Below, one piece after another: positions 9,847-19,500 of a stretch of DNA of 64,000 nucleotides. The stretch lies in the NCBI GenBank assembly GCA_965112155.1, contig OZ218101.1; one strand, written 5' to 3'. The position numbers and the translations under genes were made by a program. Positions within the stretch are counted from its first letter, which is position 1, and every line of letters starts with the position of its first letter. Source of the DNA: Podarcis liolepis. Lineage: Eukaryota. Below the pieces are notes generated by a model. That model was not told the origin of the DNA. It worked only from the letters and a program-made list of their open reading frames with translations, and ran no database searches.

Positions 9847-10207
9847 CTCTCATGTGAATGTGTGTGGACTTAAAGGGAGCGGGGGAAGCAGTGAGTGCAA
9901 ACCCTGTCTCCAGCGTCCCAGTGCGCAGGGTCTCCATGGCAGAAGAGAGTTTCTAAGCATGTTTGGGTGAGCATGCTTAGGAGCCTAGGAGCATACTTCT
10001 AAGCACATTGAATTAGAAGTGGATCTGCACACAGGCAAATTTCTAGGACGCAGCTTGAACGTGCACACCTGTTCCAGTTTAAACTCACACGTGTTCAATT
10101 TAATGCACAAATAGGGCTTATTATTTCATATGATCTGGACACTCTGCTTCTGCTTATAGATATATCTCAAATATGGGAAGGGTTGGTTGTGTGTGTGTCC
10201 TTCCTCT

Positions 10208-10590
10208 TGTGGGAAGTTGTCCGTGGATAGAAACTGACAAAGGACTTCAATATAAGGGTAACCCTTTTATTAGCGCGTTTGCAAAAGCGGACCCTCCGTA
10301 CCCGTGGATACGAAGAGCCCCGATCTGGTTTCAGCACCGTAGTTTTATCCCTTACTGCCGCCCCTCTTTTGGAGGCTTGGCTTACAATCTACCTATCAGA
10401 GTTTAACACATTTCTAATACATTGTTCAATCTACTCTATTCATATTTACTCCCTTCTCAGTGTGGGCACCACCCTTTGGCTCTCCCTTTCTGGCGTACGC
10501 GACTGTGTTATCTTGTATACATGTCTAGCTCTCAAGGCTGAGTTTGAGGCACGTCCTTTCTGTATGCTTTCATTGTTTCCCAATCTCACA
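10208..10590 (-). repeat. 3' LTR of the provirus
   Basis: Identical to 16119-16501 except T10278 versus C16189. On the minus strand: TATA-like GATAAAA at 10349-10343 and AATAAA at 10271-10266. Confidence 0.97.
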
Positions 10591-10606
10591 ATCCCCCCTC
10601 TCTTTT
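10591..10606 (-). promoter_or_regulatory. Polypurine tract
   Basis: Minus-strand AAAAGAGAGGGGGGAT immediately upstream of the 3' LTR. Confidence 0.92.
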
Positions 10607-10622
10607 GTACCTTGCCTCAAAC

Positions 10623-11597
10623 TCACATAATAACTCCCATATTCGTTCCTCCACATACAAAACAATTTTTCACAGTTAGCTCTTTGGCGATAGTCTCAGC
10701 TAGACTCAAAAACATGTTATGAGCTCTTGGGGGAAGAGGTAATTTATTTAATTGTTGTATTTCTTCTTCAAAGCTCTCAAATACTGAGATTGGCTGTTTG
10801 CTGACCTTAGTAGTATGTACTTTTATGATTAGGTGCCCATAAGGATCCTTCCCATTTCCATCTATCCCCAAACCAAGGTGAATATATTTAGGTCTAGTGG
10901 AAGGGAGTTCCTTAGCCCACAGACATACAGGATTGCATTGTCCTGACCCACAGGCCGTCGAAGCCGCTCCCCTGGTGATATTTATCCCCTTCGGACCCCT
11001 ATATAGGGGTATCTCTTCCACCCCATTTGTATACCAATGGTTCGTCACCCTTGTGGCCCCTATATTGGAACCGGCAGCCTGCTGGAACAGGTACTTATTC
11101 TCTTGGAGATAAGCTCTCTCCCAGCTTAATGACCCACAGGTGACTCCAGCTTGGTCGTTAGGCCCCTGTCCCTTGGTGATAGCAATGCACGCATCAAAAC
11201 AAACATGTATCTTCTCTGTGCCCCTGGTGGAGTTGTGAGCTATATATCCCCGCCTATTTTGTGCTAGGGAAAACATATGTGCCCTTTCACTTGCCTTATT
11301 TGCCGTTCCCCCTTTATTTCCATATACATATATGCTGGAGGTGATAGGTCCCACTGCTAGGGGCTCATAACATTCCGTCTTATTCTCTTTGGTCTTACAT
11401 CTAAGATATTGAGTCTGATTGTGGACACAGGGGTCTAATTCTACTGCACACTCGGGGGCAACATTATAATGCATTAAAGTTCGTGTAATTACTGTCCCAG
11501 TTTTAGTAACTCGGATACATTGGCTGCAGCTCTCATCTTGAATTTCGGTGGCCAGGATACTCCCTAGCATAATCAGGAGGCTGAACCCTGCTATCAT
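10623..11597 (-). CDS. env: Truncated envelope: signal peptide plus SU only (324 aa), ERV3/ENR1-like
   Basis: ATG at 11597 gives MIAGFSLLIMLGSILA (signal peptide). Segments CSQC..TRTLMHY..EC..CVHNQTQY and VFESF..LPPRAHNMFLSLAETIAKEL..CFVCGGTNMG closely parallel human ERV3-1 Env as I recall it. Stop follows the CXXC motif; no furin site, fusion peptide, ISD or TM. Confidence 0.9.
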   Translation of the reverse strand: MIAGFSLLIMLGSILATEIQDESCSQCIRVTKTGTVITRTLMHYNVAPECAVELDPCVHNQTQYLRCKTKENKTECYEPLAVGPITSSIYVYGNKGGTANKASERAHMFSLAQNRRGYIAHNSTRGTEKIHVCFDACIAITKGQGPNDQAGVTCGSLSWERAYLQENKYLFQQAAGSNIGATRVTNHWYTNGVEEIPLYRGPKGINITRGAASTACGSGQCNPVCLWAKELPSTRPKYIHLGLGIDGNGKDPYGHLIIKVHTTKVSKQPISVFESFEEEIQQLNKLPLPPRAHNMFLSLAETIAKELTVKNCFVCGGTNMGVIM

Positions 11598-11818
11598 TGC
11601 CTCCGTCTTAATTGGTTTACTGCTTGCACTACCGTGGGAGTCCAGCTCAGACTGCAATTGACCTCTCCCTCAAGGGTGATGGCACAATATTGTATAATTA
11701 TGTCTTCTATAAAAATTATGTCACACAACTCAGTGCAATGCACACATAACACACAACATTCGCAATGAGCGCAGCAACAGCATTCATAAAAACATTTGCA
11801 AGTACAGAATAGACACAT
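11594..11818 (-). CDS. Candidate Cys-rich retroviral accessory protein (74 aa) between pol and env
   Basis: ATG 5 nt after the pol stop; TGA overlaps the env ATG (ATGA). Fills the whole pol-env gap. 16 Cys, 14 of them in the first 32 aa. Confidence 0.6.
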   Translation of the reverse strand: MCLFCTCKCFYECCCCAHCECCVLCVHCTELCDIIFIEDIIIQYCAITLEGEVNCSLSWTPTVVQAVNQLRRRQ

Positions 11819-11823
11819 CGAGG

Positions 11824-14277
11824 TCAGCGTTTGGATTCTTTCTGGTTCCTGGTTTCCTGATTGGTAAGCGTCACCTTCAGCGGATTATCGGGGTCAACAG
11901 TTACCCTCCAGTCCTGCGGGGCTTTCTTGACCCTGTGATAGTGAGTCCACCCGTGCTCCCTGGTCCTTACTGCAGACTCGGTGGTCAGCAATACCTGGAA
12001 CGGACCTTCCCAAGCAGGGTGCAATTTCTCCGCTTTCCACGCTTTTATCAGGACCCGGTCACCGGGCTGGAATGTATGCTGATGTTCTAGGAGAGGAGGA
12101 TGCTGGACCAAAACACCACGTCTATGGAGAGATAACAAAGACTGGGAGAGTGACTGTAAATATTTTCTTAGGAACAGATCCCTAAATTCTACGAGAGGCT
12201 GTCCCAGCTGGGCCAGGTAGGGTCTCCCTGTCATCAATTCAAAAGGAGAAACTCCCAGGTCCTTTCTCGGCGCCACCCGCATTCTTAATAAAGCCAGTGG
12301 AAGGTTCTTTGTCCAGGGCAACCCATTCTCCAGATATAGTTTAGTCAAGTGCTTTTTAATCTCTGCGTTCGCCCTCTCTACCTTGCCACTACTTTCAGGG
12401 TGCCACGGTGTGTGCAGGTCCCACTTAATTCCCAAGGCTGCCATCACTTCCTGTAAAATCCTTTGAGTGAAGTGGGTGCCTCTATCCGAGTCGATGGCCT
12501 CAATTACACCGTACCGGGGGACTATATGTTCTAAGATGGCTTTAGTCACCACTTGTGCCGTTGCCTTCCTGCTAGGGAAGGCTTCCACCCACCCTGTAAG
12601 ATGATCTTTAAATACCAGCAAATATTTCTGCCCCCCTCTCTCTGGTAGTTCTGTGAAGTCCACCTGTATCCTCTGGAACGGCCAGACTGCGAGGGGTCTT
12701 CCCCCTTTTTCAGTTTTCTTTGCTCTCGTCTTATTTACTTTCTGACAAATTAAACATTTCCAAGCTATCGAATGAGCCATGGGCCACATGTCCTTGCTCC
12801 AATACAGGGGTTTTACCATATTAATCATCGCCTCCGTCCCGAAGTGCCCACTTTCATGTACCTTTTCTAGGATCCCCATCATCGTAGCTTTAGGTATTGC
12901 CATTTGCCCGGTTGGGGTCTCCCAATCACCATTCCTATGTTCCCATCCCTCCTTTCTCATGTAGTCTAATTCTTGAGAGGTAAAAACCAGGTCTCCTGTG
13001 TCTTCTTTAATCAGGACCGGTACCTTCAAACTATATTGCTGGGTTAGTGTGGCGCTAGGGGTATCCCTGGCGGCTTCTTTCGCCCTCAAATCAGCCCACC
13101 TATTTCCCACTTCCGCGGGGCTCATTCCCCTGGTGTGAGCCGGGACGTGGACTACTGCCACCTTTTCTGGTTCCGTGAGGGCGTCTAGTAATCTTTCTAG
13201 TAATGCCATGTGCTCGATTTGTTTTCCATCCGCCTTAATGTACCCTCTGTCTCTCCAAGTTCTACCAAAGGTATGTACCACCCCCCATGCGTAGCGAGAG
13301 TCTGTCCATATAGTCACCTCTAGGCCTCTAGCTAACTCAAGGGCTCGTGTCAGAGCCATGATTTCACATTTCTGAGCCGACCAAGTCGCCGGCAAAGCTC
13401 CACTCTCAAGCACCTCCCCGTCCTCCTTAACTACAGCGTATCCTGACTTTCTTTTCCCCTCTTCAACATAACTAGAACCATCAGTGTACCACCTTTTCCC
13501 CCCCACCAGGGGCATTTCTGACAGATCCTCCCGGACCTTGGACATTAATTGTATAGTACCCATACAGTCATGTTCATCTGGCTCCCACTCTTTTCTCTCT
13601 CCGATCAGAAACTCAGCTGGGTTTAAATTTCGGTCAGTCCCCAAGGTGATGTTGGGGCTTGTTCGTAATATGGTTTCATATTTCACCAAACGACCATCCG
13701 TCATCCATGTGGAGGCCGCCCCAGTCATTATGGTGGATATCTGGTGGGGGCTATGAACTATCAGCGCTCCTCCAAAAGTTAATTTTCTACTCTCAACCAC
13801 CAGTTCAGCTGCAGCTGCCACTGCCTGGATACAAGTGGGCCAGGCTCGTACCACCGGTTCCAAGGTTTTACTGAGGTAGGCAACCGGCTGATATCGCCCC
13901 CCTCTCTTTTGGGCTAAAACCCCCACAGCCGTCTGGGAACTGATCGTCACATATAAGTGGAACGGTTGCTGGAGATTGGGCAATGCCAAAACCGGGGCCC
14001 CGATCAGTGTTCTTTTTATCTCCTCCCATTTTAATTTGTCCTCCTGTTTCCACGTTACCTTTTCGTCCCCAACAAGTTTTTGATTCAAGAACTGAACCAA
14101 TTTTGCGCATTGATCTATCCACAGCCTACAATACCCCAGCAACCCTAACATCCTTCTTACGTCTGTTTTATTCTTAGGGGGTTGCAATTCCAAAATTCCC
14201 TTCACTCTCTTTGTGCCCCCCAATGCATAGCTGTATAAAAGAACTGTGCTTGCATGTGACAAATTGCCAAGCCACAT
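11824..14277 (-). CDS. pol: N-terminally truncated Pol (RT thumb/connection, RNase H, integrase), 817-aa open frame
   Basis: LGLLGYCRLWI (thumb); WYTDGSS/AQKCE/WTDSRYA/HVPAH/GNRWAD (RNase H); HESGH..CLIC (HHCC); QVDFT/DSDRG/KVERAN (DDE); WEGPF. No YxDD palm. The first ~20 aa are non-viral. Confidence 0.93.
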   Translation of the reverse strand: MWLGNLSHASTVLLYSYALGGTKRVKGILELQPPKNKTDVRRMLGLLGYCRLWIDQCAKLVQFLNQKLVGDEKVTWKQEDKLKWEEIKRTLIGAPVLALPNLQQPFHLYVTISSQTAVGVLAQKRGGRYQPVAYLSKTLEPVVRAWPTCIQAVAAAAELVVESRKLTFGGALIVHSPHQISTIMTGAASTWMTDGRLVKYETILRTSPNITLGTDRNLNPAEFLIGERKEWEPDEHDCMGTIQLMSKVREDLSEMPLVGGKRWYTDGSSYVEEGKRKSGYAVVKEDGEVLESGALPATWSAQKCEIMALTRALELARGLEVTIWTDSRYAWGVVHTFGRTWRDRGYIKADGKQIEHMALLERLLDALTEPEKVAVVHVPAHTRGMSPAEVGNRWADLRAKEAARDTPSATLTQQYSLKVPVLIKEDTGDLVFTSQELDYMRKEGWEHRNGDWETPTGQMAIPKATMMGILEKVHESGHFGTEAMINMVKPLYWSKDMWPMAHSIAWKCLICQKVNKTRAKKTEKGGRPLAVWPFQRIQVDFTELPERGGQKYLLVFKDHLTGWVEAFPSRKATAQVVTKAILEHIVPRYGVIEAIDSDRGTHFTQRILQEVMAALGIKWDLHTPWHPESSGKVERANAEIKKHLTKLYLENGLPWTKNLPLALLRMRVAPRKDLGVSPFELMTGRPYLAQLGQPLVEFRDLFLRKYLQSLSQSLLSLHRRGVLVQHPPLLEHQHTFQPGDRVLIKAWKAEKLHPAWEGPFQVLLTTESAVRTREHGWTHYHRVKKAPQDWRVTVDPDNPLKVTLTNQETRNQKESKR

Positions 14278-15390
14278 GAAAAATTAATTTCTCATGGATC
14301 TTTGGCTGCATCTGTTGACCTTTGGTGACTAATGTACCACTTTGGGATTTAGCGCAACATTCCAAGTCCCTGTGCAGTTTTAAAGCTCCAGTTCATATAA
14401 AGACAAAAGGTTTGAAGACTGCCTCCTCTTTCTTTTCTGGAAGTAAATATTCGACTCACATAATAAATATTTGTAGTAGATAAATCATCTGCCTTTTTAA
14501 TCAATAAATTGATTTGCGGATCACTAAACCCTCAATATTTGCACCTCTGAGGAAATAGTAATGAAGCAAGGGATAATTTATAATGTTAAAAACAAAAGCC
14601 TCCACTTTTCTAAAACAAAAATAACATATAGAATAATACAGAATCAATGTAGTGATTAAACAGACTGTGCTATGCAAACCTAGGTGGAAAGAAAGTGCAT
14701 CCTAACATATCCAAATTATTGGATCCTCCCTCAGTTATAGAACATATATTCTCTGTTGTCTGAGAATGAATAATATTAGAACTAACAAAAACAAATTCTA
14801 TGTTTCAGCATTCATAGTTGCTTTTATCACCAGGTGGTGATCTCAAACACTTCATTTTGCAAATGAAGTCTATTGAAATCAAATTTCTGTTTTCTTCAAC
14901 TATGCCTGTTCCAGGCTATGGCAGTATTTATATACAGTGGTACCTTGGGTTACATACGCTTCAGGTTAAGAACAGACCTCTGGAACGAATTAAGTTCCTA
15001 ACCCGAGGTGCCACTGTACTAGTTTTAGACAGCCAGCATGATGCAGTGACTCTAGAGGTGGCTATAGACTGCAACTGACCAGACTCAGGTTCAAATCTCA
15101 CTTGGTGACCTTGAGCAATCCATTCTCTCTTAGGCAGAAATCCTATGCAGAAGAACCCAGCATAAGTTAAGCCTGTGTTAAATAAACTGGCTCCAAATTC
15201 CATTCAGCAGTGGAGCTACCACGGGCTGAGCTGTTCTAAGCCAGGCAGAGGAAAAAAAGAGTATCTAAAATAGAGTTAGAATTACGTCATCCAGTTTGAG
15301 TTACACCACCTGTATTTCTGCCACCTTCATTTATGTCGAGTTTTGAGGTCATGTGACTGAGCTGATCAAGCTCAGGATCCAGCCTTAGTC
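14222..15390. other. Non-retroviral (host-derived) insert replacing most of gag, pro and the RT core
   Basis: AT-rich with no retroviral motifs. Contains a mariner/pogo-type MITE, a SINE-like remnant (~15080-15130) and a segment matching host sequence at 30506-30549. Junctions are approximate. Confidence 0.85.
14935..15016. mobile_element. Short Tc1/mariner-pogo-type MITE inside the proviral insert
   Basis: TA|CAGTGGTACC...GGTGCCACTG|TA. Same family as 58565-58791 and ~60780-60884. Confidence 0.85.
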
Positions 15391-15613
15391 TCCCCCTCAG
15401 GGTTCCAATTATACATTCCATCCGGCCCTATAGGGGGTATTTTGGCCAAACCACCCTACAGAAATTAATCATAGTCACTTTTGACAAGCCTATTGTATAT
15501 TGTCTCGGATAGTCCTCATCCCATTGCATCAGTATTTGTCCTAATGGACTATTAGGATCAATAGGACCCTTCCCATTTGAATCCTTCTGTCGTTTACTCT
15601 GACCCTTACCCAT
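15390..15613 (-). pseudogene. gag: gag 5' remnant (matrix N-terminus), frameshifted and truncated
   Basis: MGKGQSK (myristoylation) ..SPLGQILMQW..FCRVVWPKYP. After a frameshift in a C run it continues IGPDGMYNWNPEG, resembling the gamma-like matrix WPxEG motif, then host sequence. Confidence 0.85.
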
Positions 15614-15885
15614 GGTTTACAATGTCTCCAATTTCACTCACTCACACAATCACACGGAATCGCCTGGCCGCTTCCCTCGCGGGAGAGACGGAACCGCAAG
15701 CTAATCCTCCCGTCAGGGCCGAAACCCTGATCCACACTCACGCGTCCATATGGAGCCTCTCTTTCATCCAAGAGACGAGTCTCTCACCCCCGTCCCACAG
15801 CACAGTTTACAAAGTTCTCATGTCTACTCACCCAATACAGTCCAGCGTCGCTTCTCGCAACTAGTGAACAGGCGGGCGTCCCCGC

Positions 15886-15939
15886 TGGGTGCTCGCGGTC
15901 CCGGACCGCCAATGGGTGCTCGCGGTCCCGGACCGCCAA
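15886..15939 (-). repeat. Exact 27-bp tandem duplication in the proviral leader; each unit holds a GC hairpin
   Basis: TGGGTGCTCGCGGTCCCGGACCGCCAA x2, containing a GCGGTC/GACCGC inverted repeat. Confidence 0.9.
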
Positions 15940-16094
15940 AAATGAGACCTAGTTCTCTCTCTCTATCCCCCTATATCAAGTCCTGTCTTTTAGCCCTCGT
16001 GAACCGTCACGGGTGGACTCCGGCTCGGGTCACTCCGAAAAGACGGAGGGGCGCCTACCCGGATTCCGGGATCCCCCCGAGCAGCCCGTCGAGA

Positions 16095-16113
16095 GCCCCA
16101 CGTTGGGGCGCCA
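16095..16113 (-). promoter_or_regulatory. Primer-binding site, tRNA-Lys(CUU)/Lys1,2 type with one extra C
   Basis: Minus-strand TGGCGCCCCAACGTGGGGC, 5 nt after the 5' LTR. The canonical Lys1,2 PBS is TGGCGCCCAACGTGGGGC. Confidence 0.88.
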
Positions 16114-16118
16114 AAAGT

Positions 16119-16501
16119 TGTGGGAAGTTGTCCGTGGATAGAAACTGACAAAGGACTTCAATATAAGGGTAACCCTTTTATTAGCGCGCTTGCAAAAGCG
16201 GACCCTCCGTACCCGTGGATACGAAGAGCCCCGATCTGGTTTCAGCACCGTAGTTTTATCCCTTACTGCCGCCCCTCTTTTGGAGGCTTGGCTTACAATC
16301 TACCTATCAGAGTTTAACACATTTCTAATACATTGTTCAATCTACTCTATTCATATTTACTCCCTTCTCAGTGTGGGCACCACCCTTTGGCTCTCCCTTT
16401 CTGGCGTACGCGACTGTGTTATCTTGTATACATGTCTAGCTCTCAAGGCTGAGTTTGAGGCACGTCCTTTCTGTATGCTTTCATTGTTTCCCAATCTCAC
16501 A
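16119..16501 (-). repeat. 5' LTR of the provirus (promoter)
   Basis: 383 bp, TG...CA, one mismatch to the 3' LTR, followed by the PBS. TATA-like GATAAAA at 16260-16254. Confidence 0.97.
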
Positions 16502-19500
16502 CTCTTCACGTAACTGTATTTCGAAGTAGCAAATGTCAACACAAACACACACAAACCAATTCTCAGGCTTCCTGCTTGGGTTTCCATTGGGGCTTATATT
16601 TGCTTTAGTATAAATTGATGCTTCAGCTAATCTCTCTGTGTCTTAGGCTCCCCTTTCCCATCTCTGTATCTCAGAGACAGTTCAATACCTGCTGCTTTGC
16701 CAGTCAACAAGTGCTTCTTACTACCATGCACCATCGACTGCTATAGCCTTTGATACGGTTTCCTTCTACAGCAGAGCACATAATTGAAACCAGTTCCCTT
16801 GAAATCTGCTTAGATTTTCGGCAGGCCTGAGAAGAGAGCAGATTTGTAGCTGAATGCTTTCCAAGCAATCTGTTTAGTTCTGCATGTGCTTCAACTCAAT
16901 TTCATGGCAATTTCATAAGGAGGTTGTATTTTAATCCAGTCTGCTGCAGAGCTCGAAGCTGTTCCCCCTTTTCTTTGACTAATAGTTTGAGCATTTTTAT
17001 GCCACATTGGTTAGCAATATGAATTATTGTTCCAGCACATTTTCAATTTGTCTCTAGTTTAAATTATCCTCCAATAGCTCCCCAATTATTTTTTCCCATT
17101 CTAAGTATACAAGTCAGTTTTGTATATAGCTTTCTGCATTTCATTGATGTGTTTTGTTTTTCTATCTTGTCGGCTTTTATTGCCAAGAGCTAATATATCA
17201 AATGCATTCACTTAGTGAAATGAAAGATACTTAAACATACTAGTAGCAGAGCAATCTTTGGCTCTGAGCCACTCAGGTAAGGAAAATATTTCTTGATGAA
17301 AACCAAATGTTGCTAGATATAAGCAGGAGGCCTCAGAAGCACTAGGGCATTCTAATGCAGGCTGCAGCCCTACAAACGCTTATCTGGGAATAAGCTCTGT
17401 TCCAAGTAGGCAGGCATTGGATTACAATGACAGTATCTCTCTCTTAGATTTTTATTTGTGGCTGGCAATAAATAGACAGACACCAGATGGGCATCAGCCA
17501 TATAGTTGTTTTACAGGCAGGTTCTATATCAACAGGCCATGTGGAAAAGCAGGGGGAGATGTTCTTCCCTGAACTTGGCCATGCTGCTTTCTGCTCCCTG
17601 TATGATCTGCTCAAGCCTCAGCATTCGTTCCTGGTGAGAGTATATGACAGTCTGCTTTGGTGCAAGTAAGGTTTCCATTTTCAGCAGTTGCCCTAAAGCT
17701 GTTGTGAGGTCTTCCCAGTGTCCCAGGCATCCGATTACAGGCATAACTAGCGTCACCTCCTGTGTGCCTCTGTCTCCCCTGATTTGTATGCGCTTCTTCC
17801 AAAGTCATGATGGTATTGAATAACATATATGTATATACACCTACACTAGGTGCTTTCTCAAGGCAAAATAAAAAAATGTGCCTGTCTTTGGCCAATCTGG
17901 ACGGCATGTTCTGGCCCCCAACTGGTTAACAGGCAAATGTCTGGGGTAATTCTGAGGCCTGGGTTGACCAGGTGGGTCATCCAGCTCATCAGGCATGACT
18001 GAGCCTGAGCAAGGCCTTCTATAGGCCTCACCAAATCAACCTGCCTGAGTTTAGCGAGACTCCAAAATCCCAGATCTTGTGGGATTTTGCCCTTTTGATT
18101 CTTGCATTGACCAGAAGCTCTCAAACCATCAGAAGATGAACCTCACCCAAGCTGCAAGCCTGCTGGGTGCAGAATGCCACCACACAATGCAGCAATCAGC
18201 TGTGCCCCTTTCTTCTGCCCTACCAACCCATCCCCTCCCCACAGATTAGTTCACAATGTGTGAGAGAGCCCTCCAGTGACTCTTTATCAACTCTGTATCC
18301 TAAACAGCAAAAATTGTAATTAATCTATGATTGGGAACCAGACATTTATAACAATGGGGTTATTACCATAAGTACCCAAGAAAGAACAGAAAACATTGTC
18401 CCATTAGGGAGTTTTTGGAATGAAAATAGAATATTCTGCACAATCTCTATATGACAATTTTAAGACCCATTTATTTAAGTTGAAGAGTTAAGTGCATGCT
18501 TAGATATCTCCCACCAAAATTAAGAATTTGCAGCTGAACCAATGCATATTTACTCAGAAGAAAGTTCCACTTGAGTTCATTGGGCTTACACCTAAGTATG
18601 CATAGTCCTTGAAATGCTTAATTTTTGCAGGATAATGCTACGCTTTATTAGTAGTATCTATATATAATAATTTCATTTACTACCATTCAACAATATTTGG
18701 TCAGAGTTCCTTTTTAAAAAATAGACTAACCTAATAATCATTTAAAAACATTTTTAAAAGGGAAAAAAAGGAAGAGGGGTAAAAGATTAACTAAGAGAGC
18801 AATCCTAACTTGACAGGGTTTGGATTGCGTCTGAAGCCCTGCTGTTCACGCCAACCAGCACTAAAGGAGGGGAGGCAATATTGCCCCTTCCTTTTTTTGC
18901 AGGTCTAGCTCTAGGCTTATCAAAGCCTAGATTGGGTACATTGCTGGTAACTGGTTTGGCTTAGGATCCAGTGGATTCATGGCTGGCCCAGCTCCACCCC
19001 TTCCCTGCCCCTCTCCACCCCAGAAATATCCTGTTCAGAGGGTTTCTGCTGATTACTGCTGGTGAAAGTACCACTTACAGATACAGTGGAGCTTTCCCTC
19101 TCCATGGTGCAGCAAAGCAGAGTTGAGGGGCATTTCTGTCACATCCAAGCTCCTTCCAGCATGGCATCTCTGAGCTCCTTGGCAAAATGGTAGGTTGCAA
19201 GCGTGATAAAAATAGCAAGCACATACATTATTAGATAGGATGCTAAATAAATTACTGCATGTAAAACCTAGACAAGACAGAATATAATCTTGATTCAAGA
19301 AGATTTATTAAAGCTTTCTATAGACATGTTACCAGTATCCATGGGTGATCCTTAGGTTGCATTCTTATTCTAACCAGGGAGAAAGACACAGTGAACTTGG
19401 GCTCGAGGTGGTGAACCTTAGTTCTGAGTTGGCATGTATACAATTGTTCTGTGAAAACTGGTCTTAGTCTCATTTGTGAAATCACCCTCAGTTATAAATA

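Follow-up and report, generated by a model that had tools for sequence, protein, structure and literature searches.

Effects of stem-loops located within the LTR's R region have been reported in many retroviruses (PMC3651342). Mammalian gammaretroviruses conserve a 28-nt stem-loop at the start of R; maximal LTR activity depends on this element, which acts through the rate of initiation (PMC1769482). A conserved hairpin early in R, in which G's pair to C/T, is also described for gamma-like LTRs in PMC2664473, where the MLV hairpin is called important for RNA processing. The MLV R-region stem-loop (RSL) is credited to Cupelli 1998 and Trubetskoy 1999 (as cited in PMC2664473, PMC1769482 and PMC3651342).

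Other R-region hairpins are known as targets of viral proteins. In HIV, the bulge of TAR is the Tat site (PMC11885821), and the Tat proteins of HIV and EIAV are described as binding TAR through an arginine-rich motif (PMC3120229, PMC5072841, PMC11885821). FIV OrfA, a small accessory protein, is described in PMC3230847 as acting without TAR. Additional ORFs between pol and env have been found in crocodilian ERVs, where they are captured host genes (PMC4299795).

Here, a 32-nt hairpin in an endogenous retrovirus of Podarcis liolepis is compared with these systems. It lies in a stretch of 64,000 nt of contig OZ218101.1 (hereafter the window) and was originally predicted to be a TAR-like element, possibly the RNA partner of a Cys-rich ORF in the same provirus. 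By analogy, the hairpin is probably the form that the gammaretroviral R-region stem-loop, exemplified by the MLV RSL, takes in this retrovirus, and the ORF is most readily understood as an accessory gene in its own right.

The provirus and its family

The hairpin belongs to a young provirus on the minus strand of the window. Its features are as follows.

16502..16505, minus strand: target-site duplication AGAG, 4 bp (other copy 10204-10207)
16119..16501, minus strand: 5' LTR, 383 nt, TG...CA
16254..16260, minus strand: TATA-like GATAAAA (3' LTR copy 10343-10349), the same in 30/30 LTRs compared
16200..16231, minus strand: R-start stem-loop of the 5' LTR, 32 nt, C(CACG)G, predicted by folding
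16177..16182, minus strand: AATAAA poly(A) signal (3' LTR copy 10266-10271), 17 nt past the stem
16160..16182, minus strand: second, weak hairpin predicted by folding, -5.8 kcal/mol, pairing part of AATAAA
16095..16113, minus strand: primer-binding site by sequence, presumably tRNA-Lys-like
14208..15387, strand not given: non-viral stretch of about 1.18 kb replacing most of gag and the 5' part of pol
11824..14207, minus strand: 3' part of pol, with RNase H and an integrase with MLVIN_C
11594..11818, minus strand: Cys-rich accessory ORF, 74 aa, between pol and env, with its ATG 5 nt after the pol stop
10623..11597, minus strand: env with an internal deletion, 5' SU part only
10592..10606, minus strand: polypurine tract
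10208..10590, minus strand: 3' LTR, 383 nt, with 1 difference from the 5' LTR
10289..10320, minus strand: identical copy of the stem-loop in the 3' LTR, by sequence and folding

The copy is defective through the gag/pol replacement and the env deletion. A family copy carries the Pfam domains Gag_p30, MLVIN_C and TLV_coat, and in the PDB, Pol is matched best by the MLV-type RT p80 (E 1e-149, with HIV-1 RT at about 1e-24), which together mark the element as class I and gamma-like. A 4-bp target-site duplication is typical of this class (PMC4299795). A genome search returned 37 LTR matches, comprising 35 from the window family (15 pairs and 5 singles by position) and 2 from a sister provirus, L031. 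Several young class I families coexist in this genome, with LTR pairs that are identical or near-identical and some LTRs of 1.0-1.3 kb.

The 671 nt of the non-viral stretch that were searched match G000:C4:6687105-6687780 at 98%, a site 1.3 Mb away on the same contig. Templated insertion and host-sequence capture are candidate readings of this stretch. A short high-copy repeat inside it (14932-15018) drew nearly all RNA reads.

A stable predicted hairpin at the likely start of R

On the minus strand, positions 16231-16200 are predicted to fold into an unbroken 14-bp stem of 10 Watson-Crick and 4 G·U pairs (the latter at stem positions 3, 5, 8 and 13), with a CACG loop closed by C-G. Folding thus reproduced the stem, loop and absence of a bulge that had been described from the letters, and the sequence confirmed the identical copy at 10289-10320. 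The predicted fold has an energy of -20.9 kcal/mol, makes up 95% of the ensemble and has a z of -5.29, with 0/200 shuffles equalling it; the plus strand of the same region reaches only -6.5 kcal/mol (z -0.5). Across the 6.3-kb element, no other 32-mer on the minus strand has a lower energy, and its pair probabilities are at least 0.94 inside both a 151-nt and a 436-nt context. A search of Rfam gave only two matches (E 1.4 and 5); neither lies in an LTR, and each falls far short of the gathering score.

YNMG tetraloops consist of a Y-N-M-G loop on a C-G closing pair. The loop here is of this type by sequence, as the original prediction held, and C(CACG)G is found in 30/30 LTRs of the ORF-bearing family. 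All four G·U pairs are compatible with the RNA sense, also as claimed; as a sign of RNA-level selection, this is weak taken alone, with a probability of 1 in 16 by chance if transitions are assumed to fall on either strand at random.

The hairpin is framed by two promoter and processing signals. GATAAAA begins 29 nt upstream of it, at 16260, as had been estimated, and from this TATA-like spacing we infer a cap site at the hairpin start. The poly(A) signal is located at 16182-16177 as previously given, but the description of the hairpin as ending just before it was loose, the stem end and AATAAA being 17 nt apart. Because of this gap, a role of the R-start stem in masking the poly(A) signal is unlikely. 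The second predicted hairpin (16160..16182) would be a better candidate for poly(A) control. Four raw RNA runs mapped to 10600-16560 gave a mean depth of less than 7 on the LTR, with reads too few to show a start, and at this low depth neither a pile of read starts or ends nor a splice joint was seen in that interval.

A perfect palindrome of 8-12 nt follows the R hairpin in 7/9 LTRs examined, including the window copy at 10278-10285. A DNA factor site and an RNA dimer contact are candidate readings. In the lineage of locus F54, the palindrome resembles what we take to be a C/EBP site.

Predicted hairpins in a sister provirus and in distant families

The closest sister provirus, L031, forms a clade with the window family (100/100) and has an integrase 82% identical to it. 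Its predicted hairpin (-18.2 kcal/mol, at TATA+28) has a 5' arm in common with the window hairpin and retains the lower stem apart from three one-sided changes, while the upper stem and loop differ from the window family. No remnant of the Cys-rich ORF was found in L031 by tblastn, and its env ATG lies 12 nt after the pol stop; this comparison rests on a single deleted copy with a different loop, which a helper may have moved. A 2-nt bulge that was first predicted in the L031 hairpin was rejected as not robust, several folds lying within 1.5 kcal/mol.

The pol stop of L031 runs into GTAAG, which we take to resemble the splice-donor consensus, and the first ATG in the env frame is directly followed by four arginines. 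In the 5' part of env, identity is 81% between the window and L031 and 75% between the window and copies of its own family with the other env type. These identities may be a sign of recombination.

Beyond this sister, ten distant class I loci were fetched, of which eight were scored, since the R region of F50 was not captured and L064/L065 is a near-duplicate of F54. Three of the eight (F54, F56 and F68) represent one lineage. In 9/9 distant loci examined, pol and env have no Cys-rich ATG ORF between them. With 144 of 7959 candidates scored in the integrase search, closer ORF-less relatives may be missed.

Across the window, L031 and the eight distant loci, a G-run opening the predicted hairpin begins 25-29 nt past a TATA-like motif in 10/10 LTRs scored. 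This figure has some circularity, as those motifs were picked with the hairpin already visible, either visually or with a loose pattern. It agrees with the original reading, which put an RNA-sense hairpin where R probably begins. Across nine LTRs examined, 7 to 37 nt separate the hairpin from AATAAA, and the tighter spacing to the TATA-like box suggests that the hairpin is tied to the 5' end.

Among 45-nt windows of the LTR, the R-start hairpin ranks first in the provirus analysed here, L031, F52, F58 and F60, and falls within the best 2-13% in F54, F56, F68, F62 and F66; among the distant loci alone, it ranks best in 3/8 and within the best 13% in 8/8. A shuffle test of the segment from TATA+26 to AATAAA was strong in only four of ten cases (window, L033, F58 and F60), and the L031 segment had a z of -1.1. 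The sense strand folds better than the antisense in 8/10 segments, with F62 and F66 folding better in antisense.

Variation within the stem

Variation in the hairpin was compared among 30 of the 35 family LTRs. Only two stem positions vary, both keeping pairing; the two hairpin types (16 and 14 copies) interchange a U-A and a U·G pair. Variable columns number 2/32 in the hairpin and 43/351 in the rest of the LTR, so that the hairpin is not significantly more conserved (p 0.40). Contigs from four further runs carry this U-A/U·G swap and one additional pair-keeping change. In contigs from other organisms, two pair-breaking changes were found, each in one contig and one of them at a CpG. The sole loop change seen, CACG to CAAG in contigs of two other organisms, fits the YNMG definition.

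Taken together, 5/7 distinct stem changes keep pairing, against 18/28 expected for transitions. No two-sided compensatory change was found in the homologous stem among the family LTRs, L031 and the contigs of other runs. Differing sequences that are predicted to form a stem at the same place across families are the better evidence of a selected structure.

The Cys-rich ORF between pol and env

The stop codon of the Cys-rich ORF lies at or next to the env ATG, which it overlaps in the window. The frame is open in 15/15 two-LTR copies (the window and 14 further copies) and occurs as three variants of 73-74 aa, with 62-64% identity to the window type and a weak start context in all three. Between the window and L033, pS is 0.83 and pN 0.22, with synonymous sites saturated; for the two closer variants, L033 and L035, omega is 0.22. 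The other two forward frames over the ORF contain 7 stops each. This pattern indicates that the ORF is a real accessory gene under purifying selection.

Relatives of the encoded protein are scarce. Its sole database relative among 1.84 billion is an unnamed 55-aa partial protein (E 1e-12). A word search gave no homologues, nor did the Atlas. Pfam gave no match at E up to 1, and the PDB matches at E up to 10 include no Tat chain. Structure prediction gave a mean pLDDT of 56, with the Cys region below 50. A literature search, which covered few subscription journals, found no published description of the virus or the ORF. An ORF match on contig C8 (E 0.025, 3 stops) was rejected as not proviral.

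Being small, Cys/His-rich and placed between pol and env, the gene bears some likeness to HIV-1 Tat, including one Tat-like zinc-site spacing. The motif C-x10-H-C-x2-C, found in 3/3 variants, has the spacing of the Cys22/His33/Cys34/Cys37 zinc site of Tat; however, shuffling the first 33 residues yields this spacing in 8% of cases, and the second zinc site of Tat (Cys25, 27 and 30) is represented by Cys at only one position. Unlike Tat, the protein is net acidic (K+R 3-4 versus D+E 8-10) and lacks an arginine-rich motif. Basic residues reach at most 1 per 9 in two of the three variants and 3 in the window type, which alone has an RRRQ tail. The suggestion that the hairpin is the RNA partner of this protein is not supported, as the protein has no conserved basic RNA-binding motif.

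FIV OrfA and the visna/CAEV 'Tat' proteins are likewise small accessory proteins with a Cys cluster, a likeness that extends to the ORF only. They are lentiviral and carry the cluster C-terminally, whereas it is N-terminal here, and no sequence match to them was found. As an analogy for the Cys-rich ORF, FIV OrfA and visna Tat lie closer than HIV Tat.

Possible functions of the hairpin

The hairpin resembles the MLV RSL in several respects. Both belong to class I viruses and form a hairpin of about 30 nt at the 5' end of R, between the TATA box and AATAAA, with a G-rich 5' base pairing to C/U; both occur in viruses without a Tat-like gene. The two differ in that the 28-nt MLV motif, as given in PMC1769482, has another sequence, and the stem here is an unbroken 14 bp that includes 4 G·U pairs and is capped by a YNMG-type tetraloop. 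The virus described here also carries an accessory ORF, and a role for its hairpin is assigned by analogy. In the original prediction, the MLV stem-loop was mentioned as occurring without any Tat, and this is the right comparison.

If the hairpin acts as the MLV element does, it would fold on nascent RNA, at the capped 5' end that all viral transcripts share, and host factors would act through it in cis to increase RNA output from the LTR, without a viral protein. Here the function is carried over from MLV, and the cap site and folding in cells are likewise inferred. A gammaretroviral R-region stem-loop is favoured over an HIV-style Tat/TAR pair because a hairpin is predicted at this position in relatives without the Cys-rich gene as well. 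With such hairpins in L031 and eight distant loci lacking the ORF, the two do not travel together.

This speaks against the Tat/TAR-like module that was first proposed. In such a module, the 74-aa protein would bind zinc, recruit host P-TEFb to the hairpin and trans-activate the LTR. The likeness to HIV-1 TAR lies in a hairpin at the likely +1 and a downstream hairpin over the poly(A) signal; the differences are that the hairpin here has no bulge, no Rfam match and a loop not common to the sister, and that it is also present without the ORF. EIAV TAR has no bulge and contains G·U pairs. It is also a short hairpin, and EIAV Tat is described as contacting its major groove and loop, so a bulge may be dispensable, but EIAV Tat uses an arginine-rich helix to bind RNA, which the Cys-rich ORF does not have. 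Such a module also gains from the evidence that the ORF is a real gene, from the Tat-like zinc spacing in all variants and from the CACG loop in every ORF-bearing family LTR compared, where the ORF-less sister has another loop. Set against these are the acidic protein with its variant-specific RRRQ tail, the frequency of the zinc spacing among shuffles and the incomplete second site, the failure of both Pfam and PDB to return Tat, and the precedent of small FIV Cys-cluster proteins that are described as acting without any TAR (PMC3230847). On balance, a Tat/TAR-like module in this class I virus is very unlikely. A variant, in which the lineage refashioned a generic R stem-loop into a YNMG-capped hairpin to which the selected 74-aa zinc protein brings P-TEFb, is quite improbable as well; a host partner would have to supply the RNA contact there, because the viral protein is without a basic arm.

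The hairpin could instead serve RNA architecture rather than expression, through minus-strand transfer during reverse transcription, stacking with the downstream poly(A) hairpin or processing of the 3' end. Both RNA ends carry it, and the TAR and poly(A) hairpins of HIV are described as taking part in strand transfer (PMC11885821). The second predicted hairpin over part of AATAAA and the palindrome that commonly follows the stem point the same way. However, the stem itself does not pair with AATAAA, and its spacing is far tighter to the TATA-like box than to that signal, which makes an architectural role unlikely. Least probable among the readings considered is that the stem has no RNA function and came about as a side effect of a G-rich initiator with DNA-level promoter motifs close by. 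The invariance of the 5' arm in the family LTRs and in the lower stem of the sister would fit a DNA motif too, and pair-keeping changes do not exceed the expectation for transitions. Yet the folding z of -5.3, the sense bias of 14 kcal/mol, the better sense folds in most segments and the stems formed at the same place by the differing sequences of distant families all count against this reading.

Significance and related observations

As a gammaretroviral R-region stem-loop, the hairpin would extend a known cis-element to several reptile class I families in which its place is kept and its sequence is not, a result of modest interest. Class I retroviruses usually lack accessory genes. A class I virus with a selected Cys-rich gene of 73-74 aa that has one database relative matters more than the hairpin. 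If it were true that the Cys-rich protein acts through the hairpin, this would be RNA-targeted trans-activation outside lentiviruses and a real surprise.

Another class I family in the same genome, represented by L062 and L063 (G000:C7, near 59.52 Mb), has a pol-env gap of 1.4 kb with four ATG ORFs of 126, 138, 130 and 73 aa, which may be further accessory genes.
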